From positions 1-54,727 of the forward strand of contig JBGSYZ010000010.1 in the NCBI GenBank assembly GCA_041750655.1: DNA of 54,727 bases, read 5' to 3'. The stretch is from Minisyncoccia bacterium (GTDB taxonomy: Bacteria > Patescibacteriota > Minisyncoccia > Phycocordibacterales > UBA918). The notes under the pieces were generated by a model that saw nothing but the letters and a program-made list of their open reading frames with translations, searched no databases and was not told where the DNA came from. Made by a program: the position numbers and the translations under genes. Shown one piece after another: positions 32,513 through 54,548 of this stretch. Every line of letters begins with the position of its first letter. The first letter of the stretch is position 1.

Positions 32513-32730
32513 GTGCAGGAATCGAGTCCTACTTTCAATTGAAACGAGCGAAATAAAAATTGATTTTTATTTCCGAGTGAATGCAGAAAGAAAATTAATT
32601 TACAGATTCAGTAGACCTTTTGGGTATTTTATTCCACTCCGTTTATAAAATTTCTCAAAAGCTTTTCGATTCGCGCTACGGATTTGTAAATACAAATCCT
32701 GCGCCTGCTCGAGGAACTTTGTTCCACTTG
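32513..32730. mobile_element. Fold-back mini-element at the 3' end of the tRNA-Arg relic
   Basis: Inverted tRNA-end copy ttcgattc (32665-72) + hairpin + cctgctcgagg (32704-14), further hairpins, direct copy gcaggaatcga (32515-25). Confidence 0.6.
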
Positions 32731-32825
32731 TGCCTCGAGCAGGAATCGAATCCACATCTCTCCCGAGTGACTAAAATATGCTGGGCGCATATTTTAGAGT
32801 TCTATCCATTGAACTTCAGGGAGGC
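32731..32825 (-). pseudogene. tRNA-Arg-like relic with a hairpin inserted in the anticodon arm
   Basis: D-arm agttcaatggatagaac identical to the tRNA-Arg at 33608; T-arm ttcgattcc; insertion ctaaaatatgc...gcatattttag. Confidence 0.7.
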
Positions 32826-33075
32826 CTTGAAATGAAACCTTGAGCTACGGCAAAAATAGTCTGGGAGACTGTTTTTGAAAATATGTGCCCTTACTCGGAC
32901 CACTTCTCGAACTTTTGTGCCTGCGGAGCAATTGGAGAGGGTGTTAGAGATGTTTTGTAGACGACCAAAACATTGAAATATCTCAAGAATTTGGTTTACT
33001 AACCTCAGTCCGTTGTCTCTCTGGAACCCTTGTATTCATCAACATGTGTTGGTGAGGGGTTTAGGGAGATATACC

Positions 33076-33528
33076 ATGCAGTTCATCATTCGCGTCATAA
33101 ATACCCACTACCCGAAGCCCTATCTGTGGTGGGCGGACTTTCTCTTCGTGCTCGGCATCGTGAGTATTGTCCTGGCTGTCCCAGAAGGCTCGTATCCTCG
33201 ACTGGTGTCTGCCGAAGCGCTTGGTCGGTTCGGCTTTATCTGTACGACAATTTTCGGCTTTTCGTACGGATACTGTCAGGTCGATGCCAAAAGCTTTCAT
33301 GCCAATTATATCAATTGGATGCTGAGCCGTAACCTGGTTCCGGTGGCCCTTACCTTCCTGCTGACATTGGTGTTGGCTATCGTCGGTTTCGTCGAGGCAA
33401 ATTCACTGCTGATCTTTCCAATGACAGCGCTCATCGGCACCGCTTTTTTGGAAGTTTACGCGTGGTGCATTTACCTTCTATACCGTTTCCTCCGACTCAT
33501 TTTCGTAGGCAACGAAGTGAAAGGGTAA
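33076..33528 (+). CDS. 4-TM membrane protein
   Basis: Four hydrophobic helices; GGAGA upstream of ATG 33076. Confidence 0.7.
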   Translation: MQFIIRVINTHYPKPYLWWADFLFVLGIVSIVLAVPEGSYPRLVSAEALGRFGFICTTIFGFSYGYCQVDAKSFHANYINWMLSRNLVPVALTFLLTLVLAIVGFVEANSLLIFPMTALIGTAFLEVYAWCIYLLYRFLRLIFVGNEVKG

Positions 33529-33607
33529 TGGGCGTCGGCCGGCCGGTTCCATGCTGGAGCCGGCCTTTTCTTTTGCTTAGGCACCGGAACATACGATTTT
33601 CATTTAG

Positions 33608-33679
33608 TGCCCCTGGTAGGAATCGAACCTACATCAGCTCGTTAGGAGTGAGCCGTTCTATCCATTGAACTACAAGGGC
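33608..33679 (-). tRNA. tRNA-Arg(CCT)
   Basis: gcccttgtagttcaatggatagaac...ctCCTaa...ggttcgattcctaccaggggca cloverleaf. Confidence 0.95.
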
Positions 33680-33733
33680 TTTGTGCGGATTACTGTAGCA
33701 TATTTGCCGGGTTTTGATGATAAAATAATAGTC

Positions 33734-34069
33734 ATGCCACCGCATAGTAAAGAGGAAGATATGAAGGAAATGCTCGAAGAAAATAACAAACTTCTCGAGG
33801 AAAACAATAGATATTTAAAGCGCTTGTACAGAAATGCCAAGTGGTCTTTCTGGGTTCGAATCGTGTGGTATTTGTTACTCCTTGGTTTACCGTTTGCACT
33901 TTACTTCTACATCCTCGAACCATATTTTACCTTGCTAGGTTCATCGTACGACCAATTTAATGCCGGTATTCAAGAGATACCAGGTTGGAAACAGTTTAAT
34001 TTAATGATGGAACACTTTAGGAATGGGGGAGAAGCTACAACAACGGCTCAATTTAAATCCATAGAATAA
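33734..34069 (+). CDS. Hypothetical protein (coiled coil + TM)
   Basis: LEENNKLLEENNRYL coil followed by a hydrophobic helix. Confidence 0.75.
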   Translation: MPPHSKEEDMKEMLEENNKLLEENNRYLKRLYRNAKWSFWVRIVWYLLLLGLPFALYFYILEPYFTLLGSSYDQFNAGIQEIPGWKQFNLMMEHFRNGGEATTTAQFKSIE

Positions 34070-34141
34070 ACGTTGAAAAATACCGGAAAAAAGGTAGAAT
34101 AGCCAGCACTTGTTTACATTAGTGAGTGAGTAGATATATTC

Positions 34142-34214
34142 GCTTGGGTAGCTCAGTTGGTAGAGCATTTCCCTGAAGAGGAAGGGGTCGGCGGTTCGAG
34201 CCCGCCCCCAAGCA
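34142..34214 (+). tRNA. tRNA-Phe(GAA)
   Basis: gcttgggtagctcagttggtagagca...ctGAAga...ggttcgagcccgcccccaagca. Confidence 0.95.
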
Positions 34215-34251
34215 CAAATAAAAAGACGGCCACCAGGCCGTCTTTTTATTT

Positions 34252-34563
34252 GTGCTTGGAAAGAAGACACTTGAGTGTCTTCTGGGGCGGGCTCGAACGA
34301 CGGACCGATGTGAGCTTGCGAACAAGGGAGTCGTGTCCCGCGGCACTTAGTAATTTATAAGCGAAGCGAAATAAATTACTTAGTGACCGTCAGGACGAGC
34401 CCTCCCTCCTGTCAGTTACGTGCGGGCTCGAAAGGCGCAACGATGTTGCTTTGCAACGAGTGAGCCGTGGTCAAGAACACTTAGTAGATTCAGAGTGAAA
34501 CGAAAGAATATACTTAGTGATTCGTGACCGAGCCCACCTGTGCGCTTTACGTGCGAGCCCACC
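34252..34563. mobile_element. Two tandem fold-back mini-elements downstream of tRNA-Phe
   Basis: Inverted tRNA end (gtgcttgg + hairpin + ggggcgggctcgaac); two units bounded by gggctcgaa...cgagccc sharing the stem cacttagta/tacttagtg. Confidence 0.65.
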
Positions 34564-34642
34564 TTAACCCCACCCCTTCCTTGCCATCACCCTCCAAAAA
34601 CAGTTATATTCAAATTAGTAGAGCTGTACACGGAGAAACCTA

Positions 34643-34825
34643 ATGGATATCCAAACGTATGATGCTGAAGGTAACCCGACTGGTCAAATCATTCGGATCG
34701 ACGACATTGCCTACCCCCAACCTGATTCTTTTGAAGGTGGTTTCCATAGAGTTCATCTTCTGAACTCGGCTGGTGGTCAAGATGTCATTGTTTGCGACGA
34801 AGATCTCAGACCTGAACATGCCTGA
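34643..34825 (+). CDS. Small hypothetical protein
   Basis: 60 aa, GGAGA upstream, hairpin downstream. Confidence 0.55.
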   Translation: MDIQTYDAEGNPTGQIIRIDDIAYPQPDSFEGGFHRVHLLNSAGGQDVIVCDEDLRPEHA

Positions 34826-34889
34826 CCAGTGCAACCAACGCGGCGGGCCCATGCAATGGGCCCGCCGCAAAATCATCTCAATTTTAATA

Positions 34890-35396
34890 TTACTTACTCG
34901 TGTTGGTTCGTACTTTCAGTTTGGTGCTTCGGTCTTTATCAACTTTCGGTAAAATAATCTGTAGTAGTCCATGCTGCTCTTTGGCCTCAGCCTCATCAAT
35001 CAACACTTCCTCTGGCAAGAGGAGTGTCCGTGAGAAGGCGCCCCAGAATAGCTCTCGATGATAGTAATCTTCGTCAGGTGCTTCCTGATCTTCTTCACGG
35101 TGGCCTTTAATGGTTACCATATCGCGGGTAATGGCGATATCTAGGTCCTCAGGGCTCACACCGGCCACGAGAGCGCGAATAACAATACTATCGCCTGTTT
35201 GGTACATATCTACCGGCAATTCGCCTTCCTGAGCGTTTCTGTCGTCGTGCTCATCGTAAGCTCCATCGTCTTCCTCGCTAACTTCTTCAGTGTCGTTTTC
35301 ATCAGCAAAAGCTACGTCCTCATCAAGGAGCTCGTCGTCGTATTCGTCGAGGTTTACTGAACCGGTAAGTCGTTCTAAAAATGATGGTCGTTTCAT
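34890..35396 (-). CDS. Hsp20/alpha-crystallin small heat-shock protein
   Basis: PVDMYQT, AGVSPEDLDI, ELFWGAFSRT.LLP, HGLLQIILPK. Confidence 0.93.
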   Translation of the reverse strand: MKRPSFLERLTGSVNLDEYDDELLDEDVAFADENDTEEVSEEDDGAYDEHDDRNAQEGELPVDMYQTGDSIVIRALVAGVSPEDLDIAITRDMVTIKGHREEDQEAPDEDYYHRELFWGAFSRTLLLPEEVLIDEAEAKEQHGLLQIILPKVDKDRSTKLKVRTNTSK

Positions 35397-35400
35397 CCTG

Positions 35401-35515
35401 CCCTTACATTGCCACTACAAGCGAAGCTTGTGTGTCAGATGTGATTAAATTTGAATAAAGTTTCGACATATCTATTAAATGTTCTTATTAGTATAACACT
35501 GTGGCAATGTTAGGG
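35401..35515. repeat. Fold-back element with terminal inverted repeats and a GCGAAGC hairpin
   Basis: cccttacattgccac / gtggcaatgttaggg (14/15); acaaGCGAAGCttgt at 35417-35431. Confidence 0.6.
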
Positions 35516-35529
35516 TTGGATTCATAATA

Positions 35530-36261
35530 TTATTTTCGGCGGAGGCGGTGTTTAACTTCTAAAATTTTGACTTTTTCAAAGATGAGGAAAAGGATAATTA
35601 TGCCAATCCAAACGAATAGAAAGACACCGAGAATGGCCTCTCCTCCATTTCCTTTCATTATAAAGAAGTTAAATATACCGTGCAATACGATAGCAATGAA
35701 TAAGCCAACCATACCATACCAGATTTTCTTCAAGGTTGACTTGTAAAAGGCAAACGCAAGAAATACTCCCACTGTGGCAGAGGCTAGTACGTGGAGTAAA
35801 GTAGCCCCAATAAATCGGAAATTTCCGGTGAGAAGAGAGCTGCTCCATTGTCCGCCATCTAGTAAGTTAAATATAAAAAGAGTATTTTCAAGCGAGGCAA
35901 AACCAAGAGCAATCACAATCATGTACACAATTAAATCTATAGGTTCGTCTACTGCCTTATGCCAAAAGACGACCACCAACGCAGCGGCGTATTTGAGTAA
36001 TTCCTCAAGAATTACCCAAATGAGTATAAGGTTATCGCCAGCTGGCTGACAGACGCCTGCTTGGTACACATCACAGGCAAGTTTTTGCAAAGGAAGAGTA
36101 ATTGGCACCACAGCCATACCAGCCATAAAGGTAATAAAAATAAGCCACAAAGGCTCTGGACGCAATCGATCTTCTTTGAGCCAAAACCACACCCAAAATA
36201 AGGCTGGCACGAGGCCACCCACAAAAGCTATAGAAAATTGCAAAGGATCGAGGGAACCCAT
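35530..36261 (-). CDS. PrsW family intramembrane metalloprotease
   Basis: EELLK, GFASLEN, LLH, LHGIFN. Confidence 0.92.
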   Translation of the reverse strand: MGSLDPLQFSIAFVGGLVPALFWVWFWLKEDRLRPEPLWLIFITFMAGMAVVPITLPLQKLACDVYQAGVCQPAGDNLILIWVILEELLKYAAALVVVFWHKAVDEPIDLIVYMIVIALGFASLENTLFIFNLLDGGQWSSSLLTGNFRFIGATLLHVLASATVGVFLAFAFYKSTLKKIWYGMVGLFIAIVLHGIFNFFIMKGNGGEAILGVFLFVWIGIIILFLIFEKVKILEVKHRLRRK

Positions 36262-36386
36262 GGAGATATTGTACCAGCTTGGAGTAACAAAAAATCGCAA
36301 ACTAAGGAATAAAATGGTGTAAAAAAGTTAAAAGCCGGCATCCCGTAAGGGGTGCCGGCTTAGATTTTACGACGCCACACAGTAGC

Positions 36387-36671
36387 TTAAGGTAAAAAGA
36401 ATTCTACCTCTTTAGCTTCACCATGGAAAACCACTGTGTACTCGCTGTCGGCGGTCAGACCAGTCTGGTCCGACATAATCGAAAAACTGGCATTGGTCTG
36501 AAAACCATTTGGGTTGTGTTTGTAATTGCTTGTCATCACTCCCATAAGCTGAACCTTTTGGCCACCTATGTCCAGAGTCATGTCGATAGGGTTGCCTTTT
36601 TTGCTACCGCAGTTGATTTGGAGTTTTCCTTCCTCATCTTCGACTAGGGAGAATCGTAGTGTTGTGTTCAT
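36387..36671 (-). CDS. Hypothetical protein
   Basis: ORF with GGAGG before ATG and a terminator hairpin downstream. Confidence 0.6.
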   Translation of the reverse strand: MNTTLRFSLVEDEEGKLQINCGSKKGNPIDMTLDIGGQKVQLMGVMTSNYKHNPNGFQTNASFSIMSDQTGLTADSEYTVVFHGEAKEVEFFLP

Positions 36672-36768
36672 GATCGCCTCCTTCAATCTGCAACTAACTT
36701 AGTCATTTTAAGACGAAAAGTCAATATAAAAAGGTGCGGGCCTTGGGCCCGCACCTGGTTGCAACTAT

Positions 36769-37212
36769 CTAGTACGAAAACAACAAATGACCGATACGAC
36801 CAATGACATTGGCTTCGTTTGGTCGCCAATCGGCACCAGGTTCGCGAATTAATGGAATTTCATGCCCATGCGGGTCTTCAAAGATTATAAAACTAGCACA
36901 CACATCAGTTGGCCAACAACATTCCGGAACTTTTCTTGGACGTTCATAGATAGTACCAGTGGTGTCTTTGAAATGAACTTCCACCGGATAGGTATAATCA
37001 TCGAATGCGTAGTCGCCGTAAAAAATTCCTTGTACGGCGACAGGGATATCTTCGTCGTCTTCAAACCTGGCTGACAGAAAATGAACCGAACCCGAAAGCG
37101 AAATATGTTGTCCAGTTTCTAACCAAAAAGAAATTTGTGTGCCGTCAAAAACTACACCTTGTACGTATTTTCCGTGTGGTGGATCGAAGTCTGGCTCTCC
37201 AGTATTTTTCAT
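36769..37212 (-). CDS. Hypothetical protein
   Basis: 147-aa ORF with GGAGG RBS and a terminator hairpin downstream. Confidence 0.65.
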   Translation of the reverse strand: MKNTGEPDFDPPHGKYVQGVVFDGTQISFWLETGQHISLSGSVHFLSARFEDDEDIPVAVQGIFYGDYAFDDYTYPVEVHFKDTTGTIYERPRKVPECCWPTDVCASFIIFEDPHGHEIPLIREPGADWRPNEANVIGRIGHLLFSY

Positions 37213-37270
37213 GACATCCTCCGGTTTTTTCTATTTTGCACTATAATCCTGAACAGACGCACAGTCAACT

Positions 37271-37564
37271 TTAATGGTACGTTGGTCTACTATATTCACA
37301 ATTACCGTCGATAATAACCTCATTTACCACCAACTCATCCAGTGTAGGGTGTTGTACAAGCGTAAAAATGACCAGCTTATTGTCAGCACTTAGCCCGGAG
37401 TAGTGCAAAGCAGTTTCGCTCGGGTGTTCAGTGAGTTCGTGAAGTGATATTTTTCCTAAGTCAGGAAGTATAATTTCTGCTTTAGTTAAATCTTTACTTA
37501 AGTTAAAGGGTACTCGTTCGATAGCTTCAAATTTTTTTTGAGTATTTTTTTCAAAATGTTCCAT
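37271..37564 (-). CDS. Hypothetical protein
   Basis: 97-aa ORF adjacent to valS. Confidence 0.6.
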   Translation of the reverse strand: MEHFEKNTQKKFEAIERVPFNLSKDLTKAEIILPDLGKISLHELTEHPSETALHYSGLSADNKLVIFTLVQHPTLDELVVNEVIIDGNCEYSRPTYH

Positions 37565-37566
37565 GT

Positions 37567-39813
37567 TTATTTTTTAGGCCAACTAGCGACTATTAACAAT
37601 TCTTGATCTTTCATTTCTTTCGGAAGTTCTTGCCAAATAGTCTCAGTTACAAACGGCATAAAGGGGTGCATCATTTTTAAGTTCTCTACGAGTAGGTGAC
37701 ATAATAGCCAACCTCGTACCTGCCGCGCTTCCTGGTCGCTACTATTGAGGATATCTTTGCTCTCTTCAATGATAACGTCAGCAAAAGTGTGCCAGAGATA
37801 GTGATAGGCTTTTTCAGCGGCAATATACAAATTAAATCTTTCTATATCATTAGATACCTCTGCAACTACAGCGTGGAATTCCTTTCTAATTGCAAGCTCT
37901 CGTTCTGAAAATGAACTGAGAGGTGGTTCAGTGGTCACATCAATACCACTAGTGTTGGTAAGTACGAAGCGACTGATGTTCCAGATTTTGTTAGCAAATT
38001 TTTTGTAGCCGCGAATTTTATCTTCCGAAAGTGGCATGTCGTTGCCGGGAGCGGCACCGATAATGAGTGATAGGCGAGTGGCATCAGCCCCGTACTTTTG
38101 GATCATATCGAGCGGATTAATGGTATTTCCCAGCGACTTACTCATCTTGCGATTTTTGTCGTCACGAACCAGGCCGTGTAAGTACACATTTTTAAATGGT
38201 ACTTGTCCAAGTAAAAACGAGCTCATGAGCACCATACGCGCCACCCAGAAAAAGAGGATATCGTAGCCAGTTTCCAGTACAGTCGTAGGATGATACGTTT
38301 TCATATCGGCTGTTTCTTCTGGCCAACCGAGAGTAGAGAAGGTCCAAAGACCACTAGAGAACCAAGTATCAAGAGTGTCAGGATCTTGCACCCACCCTTC
38401 ACCCGGCGAAATTTTCTGAACCACTATTTCTCCATCCTTGAACCAGGCAGGTATACGATGTCCATACCAAATTTGGCGCGAAATACACCAGTCTCGAAGG
38501 TTATCAATCCAATGGTAGTAGGTTTTATTGAAGCGGTCAGGGAAGATAGATACACCGCCATTTTCAACCGCTTTCTTCAATAATGTTTTGAGGGTGACAG
38601 TGTCGCCCTCATTAATACCGGGGATTTCTGATGGTCCCATTGAAAATTCTTTGTGTACATCAACGAACCACTGTTCCTTTATTTGTGGTTCAATCATCCC
38701 GCCCCCACGACTATTAGTAGCAACATTGTGAGTGTATGTTTCGTCAACCTTTTCCACCAAACCCTTTTCAGTCATTTTCTCTACAATGGCCGCTCGCGCT
38801 TTTTTGATATGTTGACCGGCAAACTCCCCAGCAATAGGTAAGAGTACACCGCGTTCATCGATGATTTGTTCCCAGTCTAGTTTGTGTCTTTGGGCAATCT
38901 CAAAATCAACCGCACTATGCCACGGTGTAATAGTCATCACCCCAGTACCCACTTCTGGATCAACGGCTTCATCTTTAATGATAGTGGCCGTTATGGGACC
39001 ATTAATCCACTCTACTTCTATGTGTTGTCCGTGTTGGTACTCTGTATAGCGAGCATCATCGGGATGCATTACGACGTATTTGTCACCAAATTTTGTCTCT
39101 GGCCGCACGGTACCAATGGTAAAAGGTCCGTATTTAAAGTAATAAAACGGGCTGTTTTTTTCCTCGTATTCAATCTCGTCATCAGACACCGTAGTCTGCA
39201 TATTTGGGTCCCAGTTGACTATGCGACCACCACGATAGATGAGCCCGGCTTCATACATACGGATAAACGCTTCCATCACCGCGTTGTATCGAGTGTCATC
39301 TAGGGTAAACGCATAGCGACTCCAGTCCATACTCGCTCCCATTTTTTTAGTCTGTCCGATGATGGTGTCTTTACTTTCTTCAGCAAAAGCACCAATTCGT
39401 TTTAGTAGTTCTTCACGGCCAATATCATCACGTCGCTTTTTTTCTTCCTTATATAAAATACCTTCTACTTTTGATTGGGTAGCCAGAGCGGCTGAGTCAG
39501 TGCCTGGAATCCAGAGTGTACGCTTACCACACATACGGTTGTACCGTACCAAGATGTCTTCAATGGCCAACATCGCACCGTGTCCCATATGGAGTGTACC
39601 GGTAACATTCGGGGGAGGGAGAACAATAGAAAAAGTCTCGGCGTCAGCTTTAGTAATACCTTTTTCTATACAAACATCAGGATTAAAAAAACCAGATTTT
39701 TCCCACATAGCGTACAGTTTATCTTCGTGTCCGCTCGGTTCGTAAGGTTGTAAGAAAATCTCAGGGATGTTGGGCTGTTGGGCTTCCTTGTCCATAGAAT
39801 TCGATAGTACCAT
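37567..39813 (-). CDS. valS: Valine--tRNA ligase (lacks the C-terminal coiled-coil arm)
   Basis: PPPNVTGTLHMGH, DWCISRQIWYGHRIP, DTWFSS, KMSKSLGN. Confidence 0.96.
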   Translation of the reverse strand: MVLSNSMDKEAQQPNIPEIFLQPYEPSGHEDKLYAMWEKSGFFNPDVCIEKGITKADAETFSIVLPPPNVTGTLHMGHGAMLAIEDILVRYNRMCGKRTLWIPGTDSAALATQSKVEGILYKEEKKRRDDIGREELLKRIGAFAEESKDTIIGQTKKMGASMDWSRYAFTLDDTRYNAVMEAFIRMYEAGLIYRGGRIVNWDPNMQTTVSDDEIEYEEKNSPFYYFKYGPFTIGTVRPETKFGDKYVVMHPDDARYTEYQHGQHIEVEWINGPITATIIKDEAVDPEVGTGVMTITPWHSAVDFEIAQRHKLDWEQIIDERGVLLPIAGEFAGQHIKKARAAIVEKMTEKGLVEKVDETYTHNVATNSRGGGMIEPQIKEQWFVDVHKEFSMGPSEIPGINEGDTVTLKTLLKKAVENGGVSIFPDRFNKTYYHWIDNLRDWCISRQIWYGHRIPAWFKDGEIVVQKISPGEGWVQDPDTLDTWFSSGLWTFSTLGWPEETADMKTYHPTTVLETGYDILFFWVARMVLMSSFLLGQVPFKNVYLHGLVRDDKNRKMSKSLGNTINPLDMIQKYGADATRLSLIIGAAPGNDMPLSEDKIRGYKKFANKIWNISRFVLTNTSGIDVTTEPPLSSFSERELAIRKEFHAVVAEVSNDIERFNLYIAAEKAYHYLWHTFADVIIEESKDILNSSDQEARQVRGWLLCHLLVENLKMMHPFMPFVTETIWQELPKEMKDQELLIVASWPKK

Positions 39814-39857
39814 GATTTATGGCTGTAAAAAAGGTTAATTTGCTAGAATGTTTTATT

Positions 39858-39941
39858 AAAAACCTCCACAAAGGACCGGTATACTAGGGAAATGAATCTC
39901 AAAAAGAGATTGTAGTAGCCCGGTCCTTTGTGGAGGCTTTT
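39858..39941. repeat. Long branched hairpin between tsaD and valS
   Basis: Perfect 17-bp inverted repeat cctccacaaaggaccgg 39863-79 / 39920-36. Confidence 0.75.
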
Positions 39942-40016
39942 CTCAAATTAAAAAACAGGACAAGAAGTCCTGCGTCTCTGACCGTGTTATATACTTTCCT
40001 GTTAAAAATGCAAGCA

Positions 40017-41198: not shown

Positions 41199-41271
41199 GG
41201 AAGCACTATACTAAAAAGTGGATTGAAAAGATAGAAATGCTATACTGAAAGTAGTTCAGTTTGGAGGTGAC

Positions 41272-45293: not shown

Positions 45294-45366
45294 TTTTTGA
45301 TTGTATCAGACCTGAACATTCTTTGGGATACCGTGAAATACGTTGAAAAATATAGCTTCTTATTTT

Positions 45367-45627: not shown

Positions 45628-45773
45628 CTAAAACAATCCGGGGGATTGTTTTAGTTGAGTACAATACTCAACACCAATCACCACCGAGTTGTATTGCAGA
45701 CAAAAGCCTACAAGGTGGCCCAAATCATAACAAAATACGACAAAAAAGCTAGTCTAAAATAAGAGCGTCCGAT

Positions 45774-46229: not shown

Positions 46230-46320
46230 GATAAGGCATCCTTTCTTTTACCAGAATCTAAACCTACTCTACCAAAAGATTGATATAAAGCTAGGGTAAA
46301 AATCTGGTACACTTTAACCA

Positions 46321-46833: not shown

Positions 46834-46956
46834 GTTTTGTTTTTACCAAAATTTACTAAAATATTGCCACCACCTGTCAACCCATCTATCTACATAGTTT
46901 TACCTGGTTTTATTGGACTACTTATCTCCATAGTTTTACAGTAGTTATGCAGGGTT

Positions 46957-46965
46957 TTATCCACA
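46957..46965 (+). promoter_or_regulatory. DnaA box followed by an AT-rich tract
   Basis: Perfect TTATCCACA with degenerate boxes upstream. Confidence 0.4.
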
Positions 46966-47058
46966 GCCCTTTGAAATAGCTATATTTTTAAACGTATTTA
47001 AAATTTAAAAAATTGAAGTCTCACACTCTTGACGTGGGAAGTAGTTGTGTCAAGCTAA

Positions 47059-47180
47059 GTGGAGTCATACGTGTGTGGTGTTTATCTCCAAATACTATGT
47101 TTCTCTTAGAAGAAACGGAGGCACGTGTGGCAATAAAGCTCTACGTTGTACAGCAAAAGGCCCCCTCGGGGGCCTTTTGC
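47059..47180 (+). ncRNA. Candidate small structured RNA with terminator
   Basis: 11-bp stem gtcatacgtgt/gcacgtgtggc with G-U pairs encloses two hairpins; TTGACG upstream; GC hairpin terminator 47153-47180. Confidence 0.45.
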
Positions 47181-47326
47181 TTTAAGTGACTCAACGAGCA
47201 AAGCGACTATGAGGAACTTACACAGGACATTTGAGATAAATTCGAGACCTAACGAGAATTTATCCAAATGTGTCGGGAAAACATGTTGGTAAACTAGTAA
47301 TTCCGGTCTTAGAAAATTTTATAAAA

Positions 47327-48253
47327 TTACTTTGTTTTTAGGGTGACGTAAATGTCTTCTAACGCTCGCACTGCGTCTCCTGCAGAAATGTTGTTTTGGT
47401 GGTATTTAATATTGGTACAATCACCAGCCGCCCAAATACCCGGCACGTTCGTTTGTTGTGTCCAGGGATCAATTTTAATACGTTTGTATTCATCGGTTTC
47501 GACCACGCTAGCGGCAAAGTCTGTGCTTGGTATCATTCCGATTTCCACAAAAATACCGGTGACGTCTAGTGTGTGATGCTCGTCAGTTTTTCCATCTTTG
47601 TATGTGATTCCTGATACAAAATTATCACCATGAACTTCTATAGTAATAGCATCTAGGATGCCGGTCATGTTCTCGTGGGCTAATACCTTTTCCACAGTTA
47701 CAGGGTCTGCCTTGAATGTCGGACCGCGGTGGAGAAGCGTCACACTTTTAGCATACGCAAGAAGTTGGGCAGCTGTTTCAAAACCAGCGTTACCGCCACC
47801 GATTACCACTACATCCTGACCAGCAAACAAGGGACCGTCACACGTGGCGCAGTAGGTGAGACCTTTGTGTTCAAATTTTTTAGCTCCGGGTACCGCTAAT
47901 TTTCTGCGATCTGAGCCGGAGGCAATAAGAATTGTTTTAGTTTCAATTGGTTCACCTGAACTTTGATGGACCAGAAAACAACCATTCTTTTTCTCAATGT
48001 TAGTTACTGTTGAGTTCTCGCTAATATCAACGATTTGCCCTGAGTAGGCACGTAAATGTTCTTCAAGGTTTTTTGCTAAATCTGTTCCGCTAATAGAAGT
48101 TGTACCAATCCAGTTTTGGATAGCTGGCGAAACTTTACTTTGTCCGCCCCATTCTCCAGTAATAAGTAGAGTCGAAAGTTGTTTTCGTGAAGCGTAGACA
48201 CCTGCTGCGGTTCCAGCTGGTCCGCCGCCAATAATTACCAAATCGTACATCAT
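47327..48253 (-). CDS. Thioredoxin reductase / AhpF-like flavoprotein
   Basis: IIGGGPAG, YCATCDG, VIGGGNAG, AAGD. Confidence 0.93.
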   Translation of the reverse strand: MMYDLVIIGGGPAGTAAGVYASRKQLSTLLITGEWGGQSKVSPAIQNWIGTTSISGTDLAKNLEEHLRAYSGQIVDISENSTVTNIEKKNGCFLVHQSSGEPIETKTILIASGSDRRKLAVPGAKKFEHKGLTYCATCDGPLFAGQDVVVIGGGNAGFETAAQLLAYAKSVTLLHRGPTFKADPVTVEKVLAHENMTGILDAITIEVHGDNFVSGITYKDGKTDEHHTLDVTGIFVEIGMIPSTDFAASVVETDEYKRIKIDPWTQQTNVPGIWAAGDCTNIKYHQNNISAGDAVRALEDIYVTLKTK

Positions 48254-48301
48254 TAAATATAGTTACTGCGTAATGGAAAAAAGTATAGCATTTTATAATA
48301 C

Positions 48302-48329
48302 AAAAAACCTACTTCACAGTAGGTTTTTT
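48302..48329 (-). terminator. Terminator downstream of the displaced ftsZ end
   Basis: aaaaaacctac/gtaggtttttt. Confidence 0.7.
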
Positions 48330-48351
48330 AAAAATAAATTTTTGTTTCAAC

Positions 48352-48552
48352 TTACTTAAGCTTTGACCTTCTCAAGAAGGCCGGAACTGGCGCATATTAC
48401 TAAACTCATTACATTCGTTAAGTATGTGCTGCCCTCAAACAGTCCAGGGGACTGTTTGAGTTGAATGCAAAGACAAATACAAAAAATATTAAGGTAAATT
48501 TCTGGCGGGGGATAGCCACTCACATAGCTACGCCTCGCAGTTCCTTCAAAGC
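48352..48552 (-). mobile_element. Fold-back insertion at the ftsZ 3' end with a duplicated C-terminal coding segment
   Basis: Second copy of [11 protein letters not shown] at 48352-48387; inverted target cgcagttcc 48536-44; internal hairpins. Confidence 0.75.
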
Positions 48553-49779
48553 TTACTTTAGTTTCGACCTTCGAAGAAAGGCTGGAACTGCGCCCCAGTC
48601 ATCGTCATCCTCTTCATCGATTGGGTCAATTGGTTTTGGTTCTGGTTTTGTTATTTCTTTAGGTTTAGTGACCGATACCGGTGTTTCATTCGGTTCTTGG
48701 TCACGTTTAGACAGTGAATTAAAGATACGGCCACGAGTTTCAGCTTCGCCACTCGTGAGCACATTTTCTGTGACAGTGTCGCGAGATGAAGGTCTTACTA
48801 TTGAGTGGGAATGTTCGCTCTCCACTTCAGGGAAGCCAGTTGCAATAACGGTAATCTTAAGTTCGTTCTTCTTAAGCTTTTCGTCTTTGATAGCACCGAA
48901 GATCACCTTAGCGTGTGGATCAATAGACTCAGTAATCACCCGAGCTGCTTCTTGGATTTCAAGCATTCCCATATCGTCACCACCAGCAATAGCGAAGAGT
49001 ACGCCCTTGGCACCCGTGATAGAAACTTCCAAGAGTGGGGAATTGATAGCAGCTTGAGCTGCTTCTTCCGCTCGTTTATCGCCAGCTGAGATACCAATAC
49101 CCATAAGAGCTGAACCAGCGTTTTCCATAACAGAACGAATGTCAGCAAAGTCAACATTGATAATACCTGACATAGTGATGAGATCAGAAATTCCTTCAAC
49201 AGCCTGTTTCAGAATATCGTCACACATTGCGAAGGCATTTTGAATAGAAGTCTCACGGTCGACGATAGCAAGGAGTCTATCGTTGGGGATGGTGATAAGG
49301 GCATCCACTTCTTTTTTAAGAGCTTCGATACCCTGCATCGCCAGACGCATTCGCTCTTGTCCCTCGAAGAGGAACGGTTTGGTGACAACACCAACTGTCA
49401 GTGCCCCACTGTCTCGAGCAATTTTAGCTACCACTGGAGCAGCACCCGTACCTGTTCCACCACCCATTCCACAGGTGACAAAAATCATGTCTGAACCCTT
49501 GATAGAATTGGCTATTTCCTCGCGTGTTTCTTCAGCTGCTCGTTGACCAACTTGGGGGTTACCACCAGCCCCGAGACCACGAGTTAGATTCTTACCGATG
49601 TGGATTTTTTTCTTGGCAAGTGAGTGATGCAAATCTTGGGCGTCACTGTTAATAGCAATGAACTCGACACCTTTAATTTTGTTGCTAATCATGTGATTAA
49701 CAGCATTGTTTCCTGAACCTCCGACACCAGCAACTCGAATTCGAGCAAAAGACTCAACGTCTGATTTTATTTGTTCCAT
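48553..49779 (-). CDS. ftsZ: Cell division protein FtsZ
   Basis: [30 protein letters not shown]. Confidence 0.98.
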
Positions 49780-49927
49780 AATACATTAAAATAATACCTC
49801 CTCGCGTCCCCACGCGGACTTCTAGTAAAGTGACTGTATCATACACTGCATAGAGTACAGTGTCACCATATTGACATATTTGAGAATCGTTTATTTGTAA
49901 AAAAGTGTTTTTACAGCAATTATAAAT

Positions 49928-51091
49928 TTATGGAAGAAATTGACTTACCCACTTCATGAAAGTACTTTTCGTTTGTTTACTAAAACCAATATGATGTTCA
50001 TCACCTTCACCACTGGAGCCCCATATGCAAAGTCCATACGCGACTGCCCAGGATGCATCCTTAACTTTTCCGTTTTGGCCTGGGTCGAGAGTAGCAATCC
50101 GAGAAGGCAGACGGAGTGTGGCGCGCGCTAAATCTTGGATAGTAGCAATCCCTGAACCACCACCAGTAATAATAATTCCGGCTGGCAAAAGCCCGTCTCG
50201 CTTTAGGGTTTTAAGGTGAGAATCTATTAATTCAAAAATATCTGTTAGTCGAGCCGACACAATTTCATCAAGTTTACGCTTTGAGTAATTACCACTTGAT
50301 AGACTGCCGCGCTTAATTTTTTCAGCTTCTTCTAGCGGAATCTTTAGACCAAGGGCAATGTCGTTAGTAATATCATTAGAACCGAGTGGGAAGACTTTTA
50401 TAGAAATTGGGTTACCATCTTCGAAAACAACAATTGAGACCGTTTCAGCACCAATATTAGCTAAAACACAACCAGCTCGTTTTTGGGCTTTGCTAGTCAT
50501 TACAAGGCTACCGGCTAATGGGGAGGCCATAATGTCTTCTACAATTAAACCAGTACTTTCAATTGCTGAAACCAAATCATTAAGGTGTTGTTCAAACGTT
50601 GTAATAAAAAGGGTTTCTACTTCCAGTTTGGTACCGCGCATCCCTTGGGGACGTCCCATTACTACTTCACCGTCGACTTTAAATGAGAGGGGAATTGAGT
50701 GAAGAATCTTGCGATTCGGAATAGTATCAATAATATGCTCCTCGCTATTTTGGATAACTTTATCGATATCGATTTGGGTAATCTCAGAATCAGCCCGTGA
50801 GGTAATAACTTCACCGTGTGACCGCATTTCATCCAGACCAATGCCGCCCATCGACATGTAGACTTTTTTAATTTGAGTGCCTGATGATTTCTCGGCTTGC
50901 ATAACAGCACTTCGGACACTGCGTATAACGTCACTGTCGTTAATAATATACCCATTGCGTAAACCGCGGCTTTCAGCAAAACCGGTACCAATTATTTGTG
51001 GCATGTTTTTCTTATCTTTGCTACGTTTAACAACCACCACTTTTACTTGGTAGGTTCCGACGTCTATTCCAACAACTGTTTCAGAACTCAT
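49928..51091 (-). CDS. ftsA: Cell division protein FtsA
   Basis: VGIDVGT, NIGAET, ITNDIA, ITGGGS; upstream of ftsZ. Confidence 0.95.
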   Translation of the reverse strand: MSSETVVGIDVGTYQVKVVVVKRSKDKKNMPQIIGTGFAESRGLRNGYIINDSDVIRSVRSAVMQAEKSSGTQIKKVYMSMGGIGLDEMRSHGEVITSRADSEITQIDIDKVIQNSEEHIIDTIPNRKILHSIPLSFKVDGEVVMGRPQGMRGTKLEVETLFITTFEQHLNDLVSAIESTGLIVEDIMASPLAGSLVMTSKAQKRAGCVLANIGAETVSIVVFEDGNPISIKVFPLGSNDITNDIALGLKIPLEEAEKIKRGSLSSGNYSKRKLDEIVSARLTDIFELIDSHLKTLKRDGLLPAGIIITGGGSGIATIQDLARATLRLPSRIATLDPGQNGKVKDASWAVAYGLCIWGSSGEGDEHHIGFSKQTKSTFMKWVSQFLP

Positions 51092-51127
51092 GGTTAACAA
51101 AATATAACACGTCTAGAGACGTAATAC

Positions 51128-51508
51128 TTACTGTAAGCCGTACTTTTGTGTGTATTTAGCTTCTTCCGCATCCATTGTAGCCCCGTGTGCCAAGCCTTTC
51201 AAATGAAGTAGTGCATGTATGTATAAAAAACCGATATAACCTCGGGGTGAGAAATTGTATTTTTTACATTCCGTCTTTGCTACCACTGGTGTAATAAAAA
51301 TTTCTCCATCTTTATCTGAAAGTGGGAAGGAGAGTACATTTGGCGTGTAATCTTTGTTGCGAAACTTTTTGTTAAGTTCTCGGGCTTTAGTTTTGCCAAT
51401 AAACACCAAAGAAAGACGATATCCTTTTCCCAGGATATCGTCTTTCATTTCCGAGTACGGAAGTTTTGGGTATGAACGAGCTGTGGCGCTGATAGCGACT
51501 TCACTCAT
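51128..51508 (-). CDS. ybeY: rRNA maturation endoribonuclease YbeY
   Basis: LNKKFRNKDY.PNVLSFP, HALLHLKG..H. Confidence 0.92.
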   Translation of the reverse strand: MSEVAISATARSYPKLPYSEMKDDILGKGYRLSLVFIGKTKARELNKKFRNKDYTPNVLSFPLSDKDGEIFITPVVAKTECKKYNFSPRGYIGFLYIHALLHLKGLAHGATMDAEEAKYTQKYGLQ

Positions 51509-51511
51509 AGG

Positions 51512-51754
51512 TTAACGGTTCCAGCGTCGATCTTGGATTTTTCCAAGCTTTACCAGTTCTTCATATTTCTCTTTCTTGTCTAGCTTTTTCAAACGAGCAA
51601 ATTTCTGAACGTTACGAGATTTGATTCGAGTCACATAACGAGAACCCCGAGCACGCTGGATGATACCAGAGCCCTGGACACGTTTAGTAAAGCGACGAAT
51701 AAGATTCGCTGTGCTTTCGTTATTATTTCGGTCTACTTCAACATTTTTAGCCAT
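51512..51754 (-). CDS. rpsU: 30S ribosomal protein bS21
   Basis: VEV..NNNES..NLIRRFTKRVQGSG, basic tail; start at ATG 51754. Confidence 0.8.
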   Translation of the reverse strand: MAKNVEVDRNNNESTANLIRRFTKRVQGSGIIQRARGSRYVTRIKSRNVQKFARLKKLDKKEKYEELVKLGKIQDRRWNR

Positions 51755-51814
51755 ATGTGGGAAAGAGCATACCACGCGACAGTGGCGCATGCAAGGTGTA
51801 TTTTATAGATAATA

Positions 51815-52990
51815 TTAGACTGAGACGGTTCGGCGCAACCGACTAGCGAGTTGGTTTTGAGGGACGTGTTCTTGACTTCTAGCTTCCATGTCACGAAGAA
51901 TAACTGTACCTTCCACGTATTCTTTTTGACCAATAATAATGGTATGGCGGACTTTTTTAGCTTCAGCATCTCGGAGCTGAGTAGAAAGTGAATCACACGC
52001 TAAATTCTGATGAACTTGAATACCAGCCTTACGTAACTCATCAATCATCAGTAAACTTCGTACCTTCGGGCCAAATCCTAATTGTACAATATAGACAGAT
52101 GGAACTGTACTGAGACTAGGGCGTGGAGTTCGGGCCGGAGCTTTCTTTTCTCGAAGAATCACTACTGCTCCTGCCGCCGGTATTTTGTTTTTGGTATTTC
52201 GATGTACGAACTCAGAATATCGTCCACCACGAATATAGATAGGTTGTGGATCAAGCAGTAATCCCTCTTCGTCAAATATATCAACTGCGAAAAGGGCATC
52301 AGTATAAATATTGTGGTGACCCATAAGTTTCGGATCTATTTCATAGGGAGTTTCACTCATGTCTAAGTACTCTACAATTTCTCGGAAATGCTTTCGGCTA
52401 TTATCACTAAGGTATTCAAGTGGGCTTGGGCTCTTCAGACCGAGTTCGTCACCCTTTTCTATTAGATGAGCGAGAGCTGTAAGGGTGTGCTCTTTCATGA
52501 GCTCTCGAGCTGACAGCGGCATATGATCAATTCTTTTTCTAAGATAGTTTGTTAGTTCTCGGACGTAACGAGTGACGGAGTCTGAGTCACCGAGCGAGTT
52601 AACACGTACACTATGGTTCTCGTACCCTACTTCAGTAAGGAGCGAGCGGACTGACTGAATTAAAATAGCTTCAGCAATACTTTTCTCAACTCCAAATACT
52701 TGGAGAGAAATAGCGGCATCTCCAGTACGAGGGACCTTTTCAGTGGTATAAAATAAACTCGGTCCTTCCTTCGCATTTAATCGAGCGTCGAAGTATGAAG
52801 TAAGACCGCCGGTGAGCATACCATGCATGTCATCCTTTTTTCGTTCAGCCGCTGAGTCGTTGTTTTCCATTCGTTCTTTGCATGCTCGACACTCAGGTGT
52901 TTTCTTTAATTCTTCTGGTGAGCGAAATCCAAAAAATTCCGCCGTATCGACTGCTGTCTTTAGAAAATCTGTGGCGTTGATTGGTGACAT
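51815..52990 (-). CDS. Degenerate histidyl-tRNA synthetase-like protein
   Basis: VNSLGD, GGRY and a HisRS-type anticodon-binding domain present; motif 2 FRYERPQ absent. Confidence 0.8.
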   Translation of the reverse strand: MSPINATDFLKTAVDTAEFFGFRSPEELKKTPECRACKERMENNDSAAERKKDDMHGMLTGGLTSYFDARLNAKEGPSLFYTTEKVPRTGDAAISLQVFGVEKSIAEAILIQSVRSLLTEVGYENHSVRVNSLGDSDSVTRYVRELTNYLRKRIDHMPLSARELMKEHTLTALAHLIEKGDELGLKSPSPLEYLSDNSRKHFREIVEYLDMSETPYEIDPKLMGHHNIYTDALFAVDIFDEEGLLLDPQPIYIRGGRYSEFVHRNTKNKIPAAGAVVILREKKAPARTPRPSLSTVPSVYIVQLGFGPKVRSLLMIDELRKAGIQVHQNLACDSLSTQLRDAEAKKVRHTIIIGQKEYVEGTVILRDMEARSQEHVPQNQLASRLRRTVSV

Positions 52991-53004
52991 ATTATTTTGA
53001 GAAC

Positions 53005-53667
53005 TTAAGAACTAATATCTTGTAAAGAAGCGTCACTATTAAACATTCCCGGCATAACTCCCGCTGCTCCTAACGGGAACAGACGCAAGAGCGCCCGGCC
53101 GACAATATTCTTTTCCGGTAAAATTCCCCACATACGAGAATCAGAACTTTGATCACGGTTGTCTCCCATTACAAAATATTCTCCTTCTCCCAGATCTTCC
53201 TCGAGGAACGTGTTTGGCTGCATAGAAGCGATGTATGGTTCAGACAAAACCGCCCCTTCCGGGTGAGAGCCGTTAGTAATAGTGACTGTATTACCCTCAA
53301 TAGCGATTTTTTCACCTGGTAGACCAATAACGCGCTTAATAAAGAATTTTGAAGGGTCACGAGGGTAGCGGAAAATGATTACATCACCACGATTAGGCTC
53401 CTCAAAACGGTAGGAAATTTGGTCTACAATGAGATATTCTCCATTATGAAAAGTCTCCATCATTGAAGCACCAGATACGATAAATGGTTGAGCGATAAAC
53501 ATCCTAATAGGGAAAACAATCAAGAGCGCTATGAGTGAGAAGCGGATAATTTCTGTCAGAGGGTGTTCTTTCTTTTCTTTTGGAGTGTGTGAGTTTGATG
53601 AAACCCTATCAGCCGCAGTATCAACTACTGTGTCGGACATATCATTAACATCTGGAGTAAGGCTCAT
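53005..53667 (-). CDS. lepB: Signal peptidase I
   Basis: VSGASM, RGDVIIF, FIKRVIGLPGE, GDNRDQSSDSR. Confidence 0.96.
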   Translation of the reverse strand: MSLTPDVNDMSDTVVDTAADRVSSNSHTPKEKKEHPLTEIIRFSLIALLIVFPIRMFIAQPFIVSGASMMETFHNGEYLIVDQISYRFEEPNRGDVIIFRYPRDPSKFFIKRVIGLPGEKIAIEGNTVTITNGSHPEGAVLSEPYIASMQPNTFLEEDLGEGEYFVMGDNRDQSSDSRMWGILPEKNIVGRALLRLFPLGAAGVMPGMFNSDASLQDISS

Positions 53668-53736
53668 ACGAATTTACAAGTATTATAATCGTGAAAAAGG
53701 TCTGAGGCAAGTTTTTACTATTATCGCTACAAATTT

Positions 53737-53960
53737 GTGACTGCAATGCAATCAATAATTTTTTTCACGATTTCGCCACAGACATTAATTTAAAAGTTTA
53801 AGTGTGTCTGCTGCTGCAAATGTTCAAAAATCAATGGTTGCACTGCAGTCACCAACAGTATTTTGATGTAGTAGAGACGTCATTAATACTTTTTAAAAAC
53901 ATCTGCAGACCTATAGGTCGAAGTCGTTTGAGAAAAGTGTTAATGACAACGCTACCACTG
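53737..53960. repeat. Cluster of long imperfect hairpins between lepB and pth
   Basis: gtgactgcaatgcaatca/tggttgcactgcagtcac and gtcattaatactttt/aaaagtgttaatgac. Confidence 0.6.
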
Positions 53961-53988
53961 TATTACATAGGCGTGTAAACTATGGGTT

Positions 53989-54122
53989 ATGCGCTATATA
54001 GTAGGACTCGGTAACCCGGGAGAGAAACAAGTAATAGGGAGCGCAAGCGACCATATTCTTGTTTCCGTCCGAATTTTCTCCTTTCCTAGAGAAAATTCCT
54101 GGACGTTGTTAAAATACATACC
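53989..54122 (+). mobile_element. Duplicated pth 5' end followed by a two-hairpin insertion
   Basis: 53989-54027 (MRYIVGLGNPGEK) matches 54123-54161 at 35/39. Confidence 0.7.
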
Positions 54123-54548
54123 ATGCATTACATAGTAGGACTCGGTAATCCGGGAGAGAAATACAAAAACACCCGACACAATATCGGTTGGACAGTTTTG
54201 GATTATTTTATTGAAAACGAAGGATTACCTGGTTTGGTAGATTCAGCTAAGTACGCAGGTAGTATGTCGACTGGTGTGGTTAATGGTCAAGAAGTGACGA
54301 TTTTATATCCTAACACCTTTATGAATAAGTCTGGTTCGGCAGTGCGTAAACTGGTGCCTAAGGAAGAGGCAGAAAAATTAGTAGTGGTCTATGACGATGT
54401 TGATTTGCCGGTTGGTGATATAAAAGTCTCTGTTGGGAGAGGGGCAGGGGGTCATAACGGCGTAGCCTCTATTATTGAATCTTTAGGAAGTAAAGATTTT
54501 GTGCGCGTGCGAGTTGGGATTGCTCCAGTGAGTTTTTGGACCGGGAAA
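54123..54548 (+). CDS. pth: Peptidyl-tRNA hydrolase, 3' end lost at a sequence junction
   Basis: IVGLGNPG..Y..TRHNIG, TFMNKSG, DDVDLP, GGHNG, RVRVGI. Confidence 0.93.

Follow-up and report, generated by a model that had tools for sequence, protein, structure and literature searches.

Putative gene-end replacement cassettes with conserved folded cores at tRNA and other conserved genes of a Minisyncoccia bacterium and related Patescibacteria

The stretch of DNA analysed here (the window) is contig C10, 54,727 nucleotides (nt) long, of a 906-kb, 17-contig genome of a Minisyncoccia bacterium, which is 98.8% complete and contains 38 transfer RNAs (tRNAs) and one transfer-messenger RNA (tmRNA). Behind tRNA-Phe, tRNA-Glu, a tRNA-Arg relic and ftsZ, and in front of pth, the window carries small structured inserts that duplicate the end of the adjoining gene, and these elements are probably horizontally spreading, non-coding, strand-specifically folded cassettes that replace gene ends without an enzyme of their own. 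The family appears to be a new kind of element, and it is characterised by a common layout, two covarying cores, its abundance and spread in the phylum, a constant register between the inverted and the displaced copy, a functional gene end of evidently foreign origin, and the occurrence of filled and unfilled sites. Its targets are the ends of the most conserved genes, including tRNA, tmRNA, rRNA, ftsZ, rplL, rplE, fusA, rpsI and pth.

A 3'-end cassette contains, in order, its own gene end (A1, the functional gene end), a hairpin or terminator (T), an inverted copy of the gene end (A') and a core of type 1 or type 2. On entry of the cassette, the resident end (A2, the displaced direct copy) and its terminator come to lie beyond the core, and the gene stays intact. 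The genome that holds the window (G000) was compared with related genomes (labels of the type G001-G040), giving a set of 41 with 24 others of the same genus and 16 from other families of the order, and the cores were represented by the models R1 (type 1, ~96 nt) and R2 (type 2, ~60 nt).

Layout and folded cores at the tRNA loci

Four tRNAs were detected in the window with ARAGORN and Rfam, namely Arg (33607-33679, -), Phe (34142-34215, +), Val and Glu (45555-45627, -). No Rfam family other than tRNA reached the gathering score in the window scan, and when the matches at four other element-bearing loci were taken by E-value, tRNA alone reached that score, with the remaining matches below it. 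Analysis of direct and inverted repeats confirmed the layout that an earlier interpretation made from the sequence alone (the sequence-only reading) had proposed for tRNA-Phe, tRNA-Glu, the tRNA-Arg relic and ftsZ, with pth having the 5' form. That reading had regarded the sequences at these loci as different; however, two conserved cores are present, with R1 occurring twice at Phe, and R2 at Glu and the Arg relic. The features of the tRNA loci are listed below.

34142-34215 (+): tRNA-Phe, target gene; functional end A1 from the T-loop to the 3' end, ~34194-34215 (ARAGORN, Rfam)
34216-34252 (+): terminator hairpin T, tip of the Phe fold-back (24-nt, 100% inverted repeat, 34208-34231 / 34236-34259)
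34253-34297 (+): A' of the tRNA-Phe 3' end, in pieces 34253-34259 and 34284-34297 around a small hairpin (34260-34283) (inverted repeat, sequence)
34298-34393 (+): type 1 core of Phe unit 1 (R1, 81.7 bits, E=1.9e-19)
34394-34432 (+): decayed remnant of an older A-hairpin-A' block between the Phe units (sequence; direct repeat 34287-34311 / 34422-34446)
34433-34528 (+): type 1 core of Phe unit 2 (R1, 104.9 bits, E=1.4e-25)
34529-34563 (+): decayed displaced copy of the T-loop and 3' part of tRNA-Phe, with a hairpin remnant (13-nt, 85% direct repeat)
45555-45627 (-): tRNA-Glu, target gene (ARAGORN, Rfam)
45447-45554 (-): Glu terminator hairpin (45509-45540) and A' (45478-45497, 45447-45456) split by a hairpin at 45459-45481 (inverted repeats)
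45383-45446 (-): type 2 core at Glu (R2, 72.1 bits, E=4.1e-14)
45359-45384 (-): displaced direct copy A2 of the tRNA-Glu 3' end (21-nt, 86% direct repeat, 45359-45379)
32730-32830 (-): tRNA-Arg-like relic with extra bases in the anticodon region, the target end of its element (compared with tRNA-Arg 33607-33679; no call by ARAGORN or Rfam)
32665-32717 (-): A' at the Arg relic, in pieces 32704-32717 and 32665-32677 around a hairpin (inverted repeats)
32594-32664 (-): type 2 core at the Arg relic (R2, 57.5 bits, E=6.8e-11)
32510-32529 (-): displaced direct copy A2 of the relic 3' end (20-nt, 85% direct repeat)

An inverted copy interrupted by a hairpin had been described for the three tRNA loci, and split pieces were indeed found at Phe, Glu and the Arg relic, the Phe copy ending in tcgaa. 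At Phe, the perfect 24-nt inverted repeat comprises the last bases of the tRNA and the terminator, the T arm has an inverted copy of 23 nt and 87% (34186-34208 / 34284-34306), the two units stand in tandem at 135 nt from start to start, and the direct copy is weak (34551-34563). At Glu, read along the minus strand, the terminator is followed by the split inverted copy (20 nt with 85% at 45478-45497, and 10 nt with 100% at 45447-45456), a 62-nt middle part and the 86% direct copy of the 3' end.

Approximately 0.8 kb (32831-33606) lies between the working tRNA-Arg and the full-length relic on the same strand, and it contains an open reading frame (ORF) of 171 aa on the opposite strand (33013-33528) without a Pfam match. 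In run X3, positions 32798 and 33611 are joined on a contig of a related organism, and the region may be a larger cassette that replaced the whole tRNA-Arg. Contigs of four DNA runs aligned to 32400-52399 of the window gave no usable joints, those found being derived from tRNAs of other organisms, and an uncovered stretch in run X1 (34172-34860) was not counted as a finding.

The type 1 core is one module common to the sequences behind seven tRNAs of the genome, and clean copies in genomes of the same genus show the order A1, terminator hairpin, A' (frequently interrupted by a small hairpin whose loop is CTGC), ~96-nt core, A2 and resident terminator. In an alignment of 21 sequences, the fold consists of a closing helix, a variable hairpin and a long hairpin, with compensatory change in 16 of the 23 pairs. 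The long hairpin has the invariant word CTTAG in both arms, which places T opposite T, together with a bulged A and an apical mini-hairpin. Among 95 distinct copies from other Patescibacteria, 97.5% of the cells pair and compensatory change was observed in all 23 pairs; none of 500 shuffles reached the observed type 1 values, and slid controls paired at 25-42%. G-T and T-G combinations number 42 against six of A-C and C-A, and from this excess it follows that selection for the fold acts on only the sense strand, in the form of either RNA or single-stranded DNA. R1 found 22 copies in G000 (E up to 1), and within the window it was significant at the two Phe units only.

The type 2 core, of ~60 nt, was aligned from Glu, the Arg relic and eleven other sites, and it contains a long hairpin, a conserved linker and a 5-bp hairpin, with compensatory change in 14 of 18 pairs. 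A total of 42 copies were detected with R2 in the genome, including the two in the window. The cores range from 60 to 110 nt and contain no ORF. Structure models common to several loci, with compensatory pairs in both, could thus be built, and they support the view of the sequence-only reading that the loci form a single family of target-adapted elements. Its inclusion of the loops at 47198 and 1478 did not carry over to the models, the nearest R1 matches having E=1.1 and 5.5 and the nearest R2 match E=0.35. Significance with R1 or R2 was likewise not reached at ftsZ, pth, 47100-47280 or 1315-1700.

Abundance, register and origin of the duplicated gene ends

Approximately 60 cores occur in the genome, a considerable weight for 0.9 Mb; 29 of the 60 examined stand behind a co-oriented tRNA or tmRNA, and 24 of the 39 tRNA and tmRNA genes have at least one core downstream. 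When copies of tRNA ends were searched for around the 38 tRNAs of the genome, where background scores range from 5 to 9, 11 tRNAs had a direct copy of the 3' end downstream with a score of at least 14, and seven had a copy of the 5' end upstream with a score of at least 15. The tmRNA carries a type 1 element (C7:102914-103019, -) in which the inverted copy is split and the direct copy of the tRNA-like 3' end is 24 nt long (alignment score 21). Other sites in G000 are the 3' end of 16S rRNA, fusA, and genes with rplE-like and dnaJ-like C-termini (named by eye from the translated ends), while rpsI-like and rplL-like gene ends were among the sites in relatives. In G000 (C3:1-300) and G018 (L021), a type 1 core lies between copies of a tRNA-Ser-type 3' end, behind the end of an apparently structured RNA-like gene that ARAGORN does not call as a tRNA. 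Related sequence is found close to the start of C3 and the end of C15, so these repeats may be points at which the assembly breaks.

The type 1 hairpin motif was found across Patescibacteria in a scan of public genomes, which yielded 103 usable cores from contigs labelled Saccharibacteria, Kaiserbacteria, Paceibacteria/Parcubacteria, Nomurabacteria, Yonathbacteria and Minisyncoccia; two contigs on the scan list were labelled from another phylum (Patiriisocius, Bacteroidia). A total of 72 of the 103 cores lie at most 400 nt downstream of a co-oriented tRNA or tmRNA, mostly at 45-94 nt. Of the 103 cores, 52 have an inverted copy (score of at least 10) immediately on the 5' side, compared with 10 in the control, and 30 have a direct copy (score of at least 12) immediately on the 3' side, compared with six. 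Within the 41 genomes, R1 is present in 35, namely G000, 23 of the 24 others of the genus and 11 of the 16 from other families of the order. R2 is also present in 35, with up to 72 copies, and both types are missing from G026, G031, G032, G034 and G040.

Gene-end blocks and cores alternate in tandem arrays at Phe in the window, in G015 and in G010. On one Saccharibacteria contig, tRNA-Lys carries an exact dimer of the unit, beyond which lie an 11-nt copy and the old terminator, and tRNA-Cys on that contig has a core with the whole fold-back on both sides. In a nearest-neighbour comparison based on genome labels, not target labels, the closest relative of a core was often at another locus of the same genome (identity 0.84-0.89 in G007, up to 0.91 in G018), and therefore the families also spread within lineages to new targets.

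The joints follow a constant register. In 24 of the 39 type 1 elements with both copies scorable, A' extends exactly 2 nt deeper into the gene than the start of A2, so that A2 starts 2 nt downstream of the gene position with which the core-adjoining base of A' pairs. The direct copies themselves vary from 11 to 50 nt. Such regularity at tRNA and protein targets alike points to a defined joining step and not to random illegitimate recombination.

The protein-gene targets allow the origin of the two gene ends to be assessed, beginning with ftsZ in the window.

48552-48594 (-): functional ftsZ 3' end A1, encoding 11 residues and the stop (sequence, codon test)
48394-48551 (-): ftsZ insert with a short inverted copy (48536-48552), a start resembling the type 1 core by eye, and an internal hairpin at 48434-48460 (repeats)
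48351-48393 (-): displaced ftsZ end A2, which still encodes 11 residues and the stop and is followed by the resident terminator, 48302-48329 (39-nt, 79% direct repeat; inverted repeat; codon test)

The direct copy lies 201 nt downstream (48351-48389 against 48552-48590), and the inverted copy is of 9 nt only, right after the stop (48536-48544 against 48584-48592). The best R1 match of the insert, at 48389-48459, has E=2.9, which is below statistical significance for membership in type 1. A1 and A2 differ by seven synonymous codons and by two differing codons at the 5' edge, and so few non-synonymous codons would be expected under random substitution with P=0.0004. In 12 protein-gene cases aligned as DNA (seven ftsZ, two rplL-like, one unnamed gene, and the rplE-like and fusA ends of G000), A1 and A2 differ by 62 synonymous and two non-synonymous codons. 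Free drift after an in-place duplication would give mostly non-synonymous change; the few non-synonymous differences suggest that the differences pre-date the juxtaposition, and that two functional ends from different lineages were joined. The functional gene end thus appears, from this codon pattern, to be foreign, and the displaced copy to be the former functional end. Where A1 and A2 differ within the paired stretch, A' mostly matches A1 (~8 of 9 sites, as read by eye from alignments), suggesting that A' travels with the incoming end.

The peptide pattern used to find displaced ftsZ copies favours intact ones and misses decayed ones. A total of 28 ftsZ end copies from 19 genomes of the genus all specify the same 11 residues, with differences at synonymous sites. 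Identity between the displaced copy of G000 and the functional end of G012 is 94%, and it is only 76% for the adjoining part of ftsZ in the two genomes. Identity within copy pairs varies from 36 of 36 nt in G023 and 94% in G013 to much lower values. The ftsZ end was located at 24 loci, two more being cut by contig ends; 11 of these have an R1 core just downstream, nine have a second copy that still codes, and 11 have neither. The core stands exactly between both copies at seven of the 24, and a still-coding second copy without an R1-detectable core occurs in G000 and G018. Yet another structured core, ~75 nt long, which by eye differs from R1 and R2 and ends in a CTGTAAGG-like word, lies behind ftsZ in G018 (L188) and G020 (L180), and in G018 it stands between the inverted copy and the intact displaced ftsZ end.

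Insertion into conserved gene ends with restoration of the gene, as the sequence-only reading had it, agrees with the old ends and old terminators that remain alongside. Empty alleles in relatives were encountered at tRNA-Phe in G021 and at ftsZ in G003, where the site looks truly empty, while G020 holds the other structured insert, by eye, at ftsZ. Two other origins were rejected. Capture of the bottom strand of the resident at a staggered break is at odds with A' following the foreign A1 where the copies differ. A staggered-cut duplication with divergence in place disagrees with displaced copies that have nearly no non-synonymous change, although the G023 pair leaves this possible for some events.

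Mode of insertion and comparison with known systems

With respect to an autonomous transposase relative, G000 gave no match to Y1_Tnp (PF01797, for which control genomes matched), IS110 (PF01548) or the TnpB zinc ribbon, other transposase families not having been searched, and it gave none to RVT_1. The HUH/RAYT-type mobiliser that had been offered as an alternative is therefore not borne out by this 98.8%-complete genome. No integrase genes were found beside the elements, whose inserts are non-coding. One tyrosine recombinase was found in the genome (C1:52512-53033, Xer-like by eye); a search of the genome for a dif-like palindrome containing the words of the hairpin gave none, and the paired arms vary with the target. 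Two genes have the resolvase domain of large serine recombinases, and that at 1-1314 (-) of the window, with Resolvase, Recombinase and zinc-ribbon domains, had been taken for a partner of the elements. This partnership fails in the comparison, since Recombinase-domain genes occur in the element-free G031, G034 and G040 and none were found in the element-rich G002, G009, G011, G021, G036, G037 and G038, so that the domain does not track the elements over the 41 genomes. The second gene (C12:29990-31590) ends beside tRNA-Glu-ctc. Both genes, that of the window together with 1315-1700, are likely parts of ordinary integrated elements unrelated to the mini-elements.

The active form of the cassette would be the sense single strand, entering for example by natural transformation, and the strand-specific fold fits such a single-stranded intermediate. 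The gene-body part of the incoming strand would pair with the resident gene through RecA, and A' would fold onto its own A1 and hide the spare end so that crossing-over could not drop the element; alternatively, A' might pair with the displaced resident strand. Through the pairing of A', the foot of the long hairpin, where the core has its 3' end, would come to lie beside a position p of the resident end, at which a host nuclease and ligase would join the strands, and replication would fix the insertion. No element-encoded enzyme would be needed, and repeated invasions would stack units with the youngest beside the gene. Such a route would account for the orientation and register, the preference for the most conserved genes, the foreign A1 and fresh A2, the stacked units and the missing enzyme gene. 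The data also agree with the earlier, conjectural suggestion that the fold might restore a duplex of the target and so allow recombination. In its most complete form, this would be an enzyme-less 'homing' DNA, a folded strand with a spare gene end, the inverted copy as guide or mask and a three-helix core, relying only on host uptake, RecA, nuclease and ligase, spreading between species of Patescibacteria and time and again replacing the ends of tRNA, ftsZ and ribosomal-protein genes, a proposal that we put forward as possible and rather doubtful.

Several points weigh against gene-end replacement by such cassettes. The insertion mechanism as a whole is something that we infer, and we hold it to be tentative, with more doubt than confidence. 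The type 1 hairpin keeps its sequence from class to class, which suggests a specific protein partner that the enzyme-free model does not name, and re-targeting of a cassette is not explained, though the cores cluster by genome. DprA was detected in all 41 genomes; this is compatible with single-strand uptake, but being universal it is uninformative and does not separate the readings, and the five genomes without either core type also have it, so that something besides competence decides presence. An ftsZ core without an intact copy was observed in G010, G004, G022 and G005, four of the 13 filled genomes. In G023, no inverted copy is visible with the two ftsZ copies identical over 36 nt, which indicates that A' is not always present and that this duplication may have arisen in place. 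At tRNA-Phe of G022, the inverted copy is closer to the displaced copy than to the functional tRNA. The unexplained hairpin conservation, the five element-free genomes and the origin of target specificities together make a dedicated trans-acting enzyme the main rival, and a host function a lesser one.

As non-autonomous transposons, the elements would be moved in trans by a dedicated single-strand DNA enzyme that recognises the core hairpin and uses A' as a guide; a HUH/Y1- or Y2-type enzyme, a Xer-type tyrosine recombinase with a folded substrate (compare CTX phage and integron attC) or an unknown nuclease might serve, borne on a phage or plasmid or unrecognised. We consider this unlikely for the time being. 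The conserved and imperfect hairpin, with T facing T, a bulged A and a GNA-type apical mini-hairpin, would suit such an enzyme, as would the strand-specific fold, a right-hand junction that is sharp at the foot of the hairpin and in a constant 2-nt register, the joint absence of both core types from the same five genomes, and the exact tandem dimers. However, a 98.8%-complete genome with ~60 copies gave no Y1_Tnp, RT, TnpB or IS110 match, its only tyrosine recombinase is Xer-like by eye, its serine recombinases do not co-occur with the elements, the targets have no common cleavage motif just before A, and the foreign functional end is not explained by this model alone.

It is improbable that the elements are host-beneficial modules and not selfish DNA (a 3'-end terminator, an insulator, an RNA-processing or stabilising structure, or a REP/BIME-like DNA structure, from repetitive extragenic palindromic sequences and bacterial interspersed mosaic elements) that are selected behind highly expressed genes and copied by recombination, with the gene-end copies as by-products. 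Compensatory changes persist at the same locus across species, as at Phe unit 1, which is 88% identical to its G008 counterpart, cores keep high model scores while the adjoining displaced ends decay, position and orientation behind stable-RNA and ribosomal-protein genes are constant, and every cassette supplies a terminator-like hairpin, all of which agree with a host role. Against it, the terminator between gene and core makes co-transcription doubtful and no conserved promoter was seen; presence varies at the same gene within one genus, some related genomes have no element, and G022 does not preserve the pairing between A' and the gene end. Moreover, tandem stacking and foreign gene ends are marks of invasion and not of a housekeeping signal. 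Scars of integrase-mediated integration, that is, attachment-site (att) duplications left after the body of an integrated element was deleted, are highly improbable, for although mobile elements that integrate into tRNA genes are known to leave direct repeats consisting of a complete and a partial copy of the gene (PMC9897764), the same ~60-96-nt structured cores stand between the repeats at dozens of sites, the inverted copy is in a fixed register, protein C- and N-termini are among the targets, and the elements have no adjoining integrase genes in a genome with one tyrosine recombinase.

The nearest described system appears, by its arrangement, to be the mobile endonuclease ORF (mORF) of fungal mitochondria, as described in PMC3630166. 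Fungal mORFs carry a foreign C-terminal gene segment, of atp6 in Allomyces and of atp6, atp9, cox2 and nad3 in Glomus, and the inserted and native ends specify similar proteins with different DNA, which was interpreted as horizontal transfer (PMC3630166). Both systems share the gene core, the inserted foreign end, the mobile element and a native end displaced downstream, with conserved genes as targets, and the pairing of a foreign inserted end with a displaced native end was found here in the 62 against two codons of the 12 cases and in the ftsZ ends of the genus. However, the mobile part of the mORF is described there as a protein-coding homing endonuclease, while here it is a non-coding folded core without an ORF. 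Unlike the mORF, the present elements have an inverted target copy, also hit tRNA, tmRNA and 5' ends, and reach dozens of copies per genome.

T-loop junctions are typical of integrase sites in tRNA genes, and Williams is said to have laid down, in 2002, rules for the sublocation of integration at tRNA and tmRNA genes. The elements resemble tyrosine-integrase elements in the direct repeat of the tRNA 3' part around the insert, the restored gene and the T-loop junctions. Unlike integrative elements, they have an insert of ~150-250 nt, no integrase in or beside them and an inverted copy with a structured core, and they also hit the ends of protein genes.

REP/BIME sequences, repeats of the miniature inverted-repeat transposable element (MITE) type and IS200/IS605 relatives are abundant, short, hairpin-forming, strand-specific and found behind genes, and IS608 recognises its target through element-internal bases that pair with it. 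In place of the conserved terminal inverted repeats and fixed short target duplication of a MITE, the flanks here are target-derived and differ at each site. The RAYT gene that accompanies REP/BIME was not found, G000 having no PF01797 match, nor was the DEDD transposase that lies beside the structured RNA of IS110 bridge-RNA systems (PF01548, no match in G000). IS200/IS605 elements and palindrome-associated transposable elements have TnpA and/or TnpB and subterminal hairpins at both ends; here one conserved long hairpin stands on the 3' side only. Unlike REP/BIME, MITE and IS200/IS605, the present elements have flanks that are target copies of variable length (11-50 nt), and a functional gene end that is foreign.

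In CTX phage attP(+), acted on by XerCD, and in integron attC, a single strand folds into an imperfect hairpin with unpaired bases, and the order site, cargo, inverted site, loop and site is expected after a one-strand exchange. An imperfect one-strand hairpin with conserved unpaired bases was likewise found here, and the layout matches that order; however, the CTX and integron sites are fixed sequences for one recombinase, while here the paired arms copy many different genes. Minimal mobile elements of Neisseria are gene cassettes between two conserved genes that are moved by transformation and homologous recombination. The present elements would move in a similar way and likewise have no genes of their own, but unlike in Neisseria a single gene gives both arms, because its end is duplicated. 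A description of such elements was not found in the literature on repeats and mobile elements of Patescibacteria, the Candidate Phyla Radiation or Saccharibacteria, subscription journals being outside the coverage.

If the cassette reading is true, DNA can be mobile without coding anything, by borrowing homology from a conserved gene, bringing a spare end and relying on its own fold. The elements would then form a steady channel of exchange between species at essential genes, visible at the C-terminal peptide of FtsZ, and would bear on competence and recombination in Patescibacteria. For annotation, pseudo-ends of tRNAs and genes can mislead, and assemblies seem to break at these repeats, some cores lying at contig ends. 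A compact and programmable insertion of DNA at a chosen gene end would be of interest as a tool.

The pth insert and the 5'-end class

The insert at pth lies upstream of the gene and comprises the following features.

53989-54027 (+): displaced copy of the pth 5' end (39-nt, 90% direct repeat with 54123-54161)
54028-54122 (+): pth insert with a hairpin that includes a 13-nt inverted copy (54058-54070), a second hairpin (54071-54098), and then the region just upstream of the gene (inverted repeats)
54123-54161 (+): functional 5' end of pth, whose ORF extends over 54123-54587 (ORF, direct repeat)

The copy of the first pth codons thus begins 134 nt upstream of the gene start, and the insert has no R1 or R2 match. 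The sequence-only reading had noted a duplicated end and hairpins without a clear inverted copy; the first two were borne out, and a weak inverted copy was found as well (13 nt, 85%, 54019-54031 / 54058-54070).

At 47100-47280, where one of the loops named above is located, the sequence is a convergent intergenic region between the ORF 46321-46833 and a thioredoxin-reductase-like gene, with a terminator and several hairpins, and its matches to R1 (E=1.1) and R2 (E=0.35) are insignificant.

A mirror class, which the pth insert resembles, was observed at tRNA 5' ends of G000, upstream of tRNA-Ser (C11:62432-62519, C15:134-223 and C7:118233-118320), Lys-ctt, Glu-ctc, Thr-tgt, Asn and Tyr. In these inserts, a former copy of tRNA positions 1 to ~24 is followed by a hairpin, whose loop is often CTGC, in some cases by a common module of ~100 nt, and then by new upstream sequence and the working tRNA. 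Two nested inserts of this class lie upstream of tRNA-Ser-gga.

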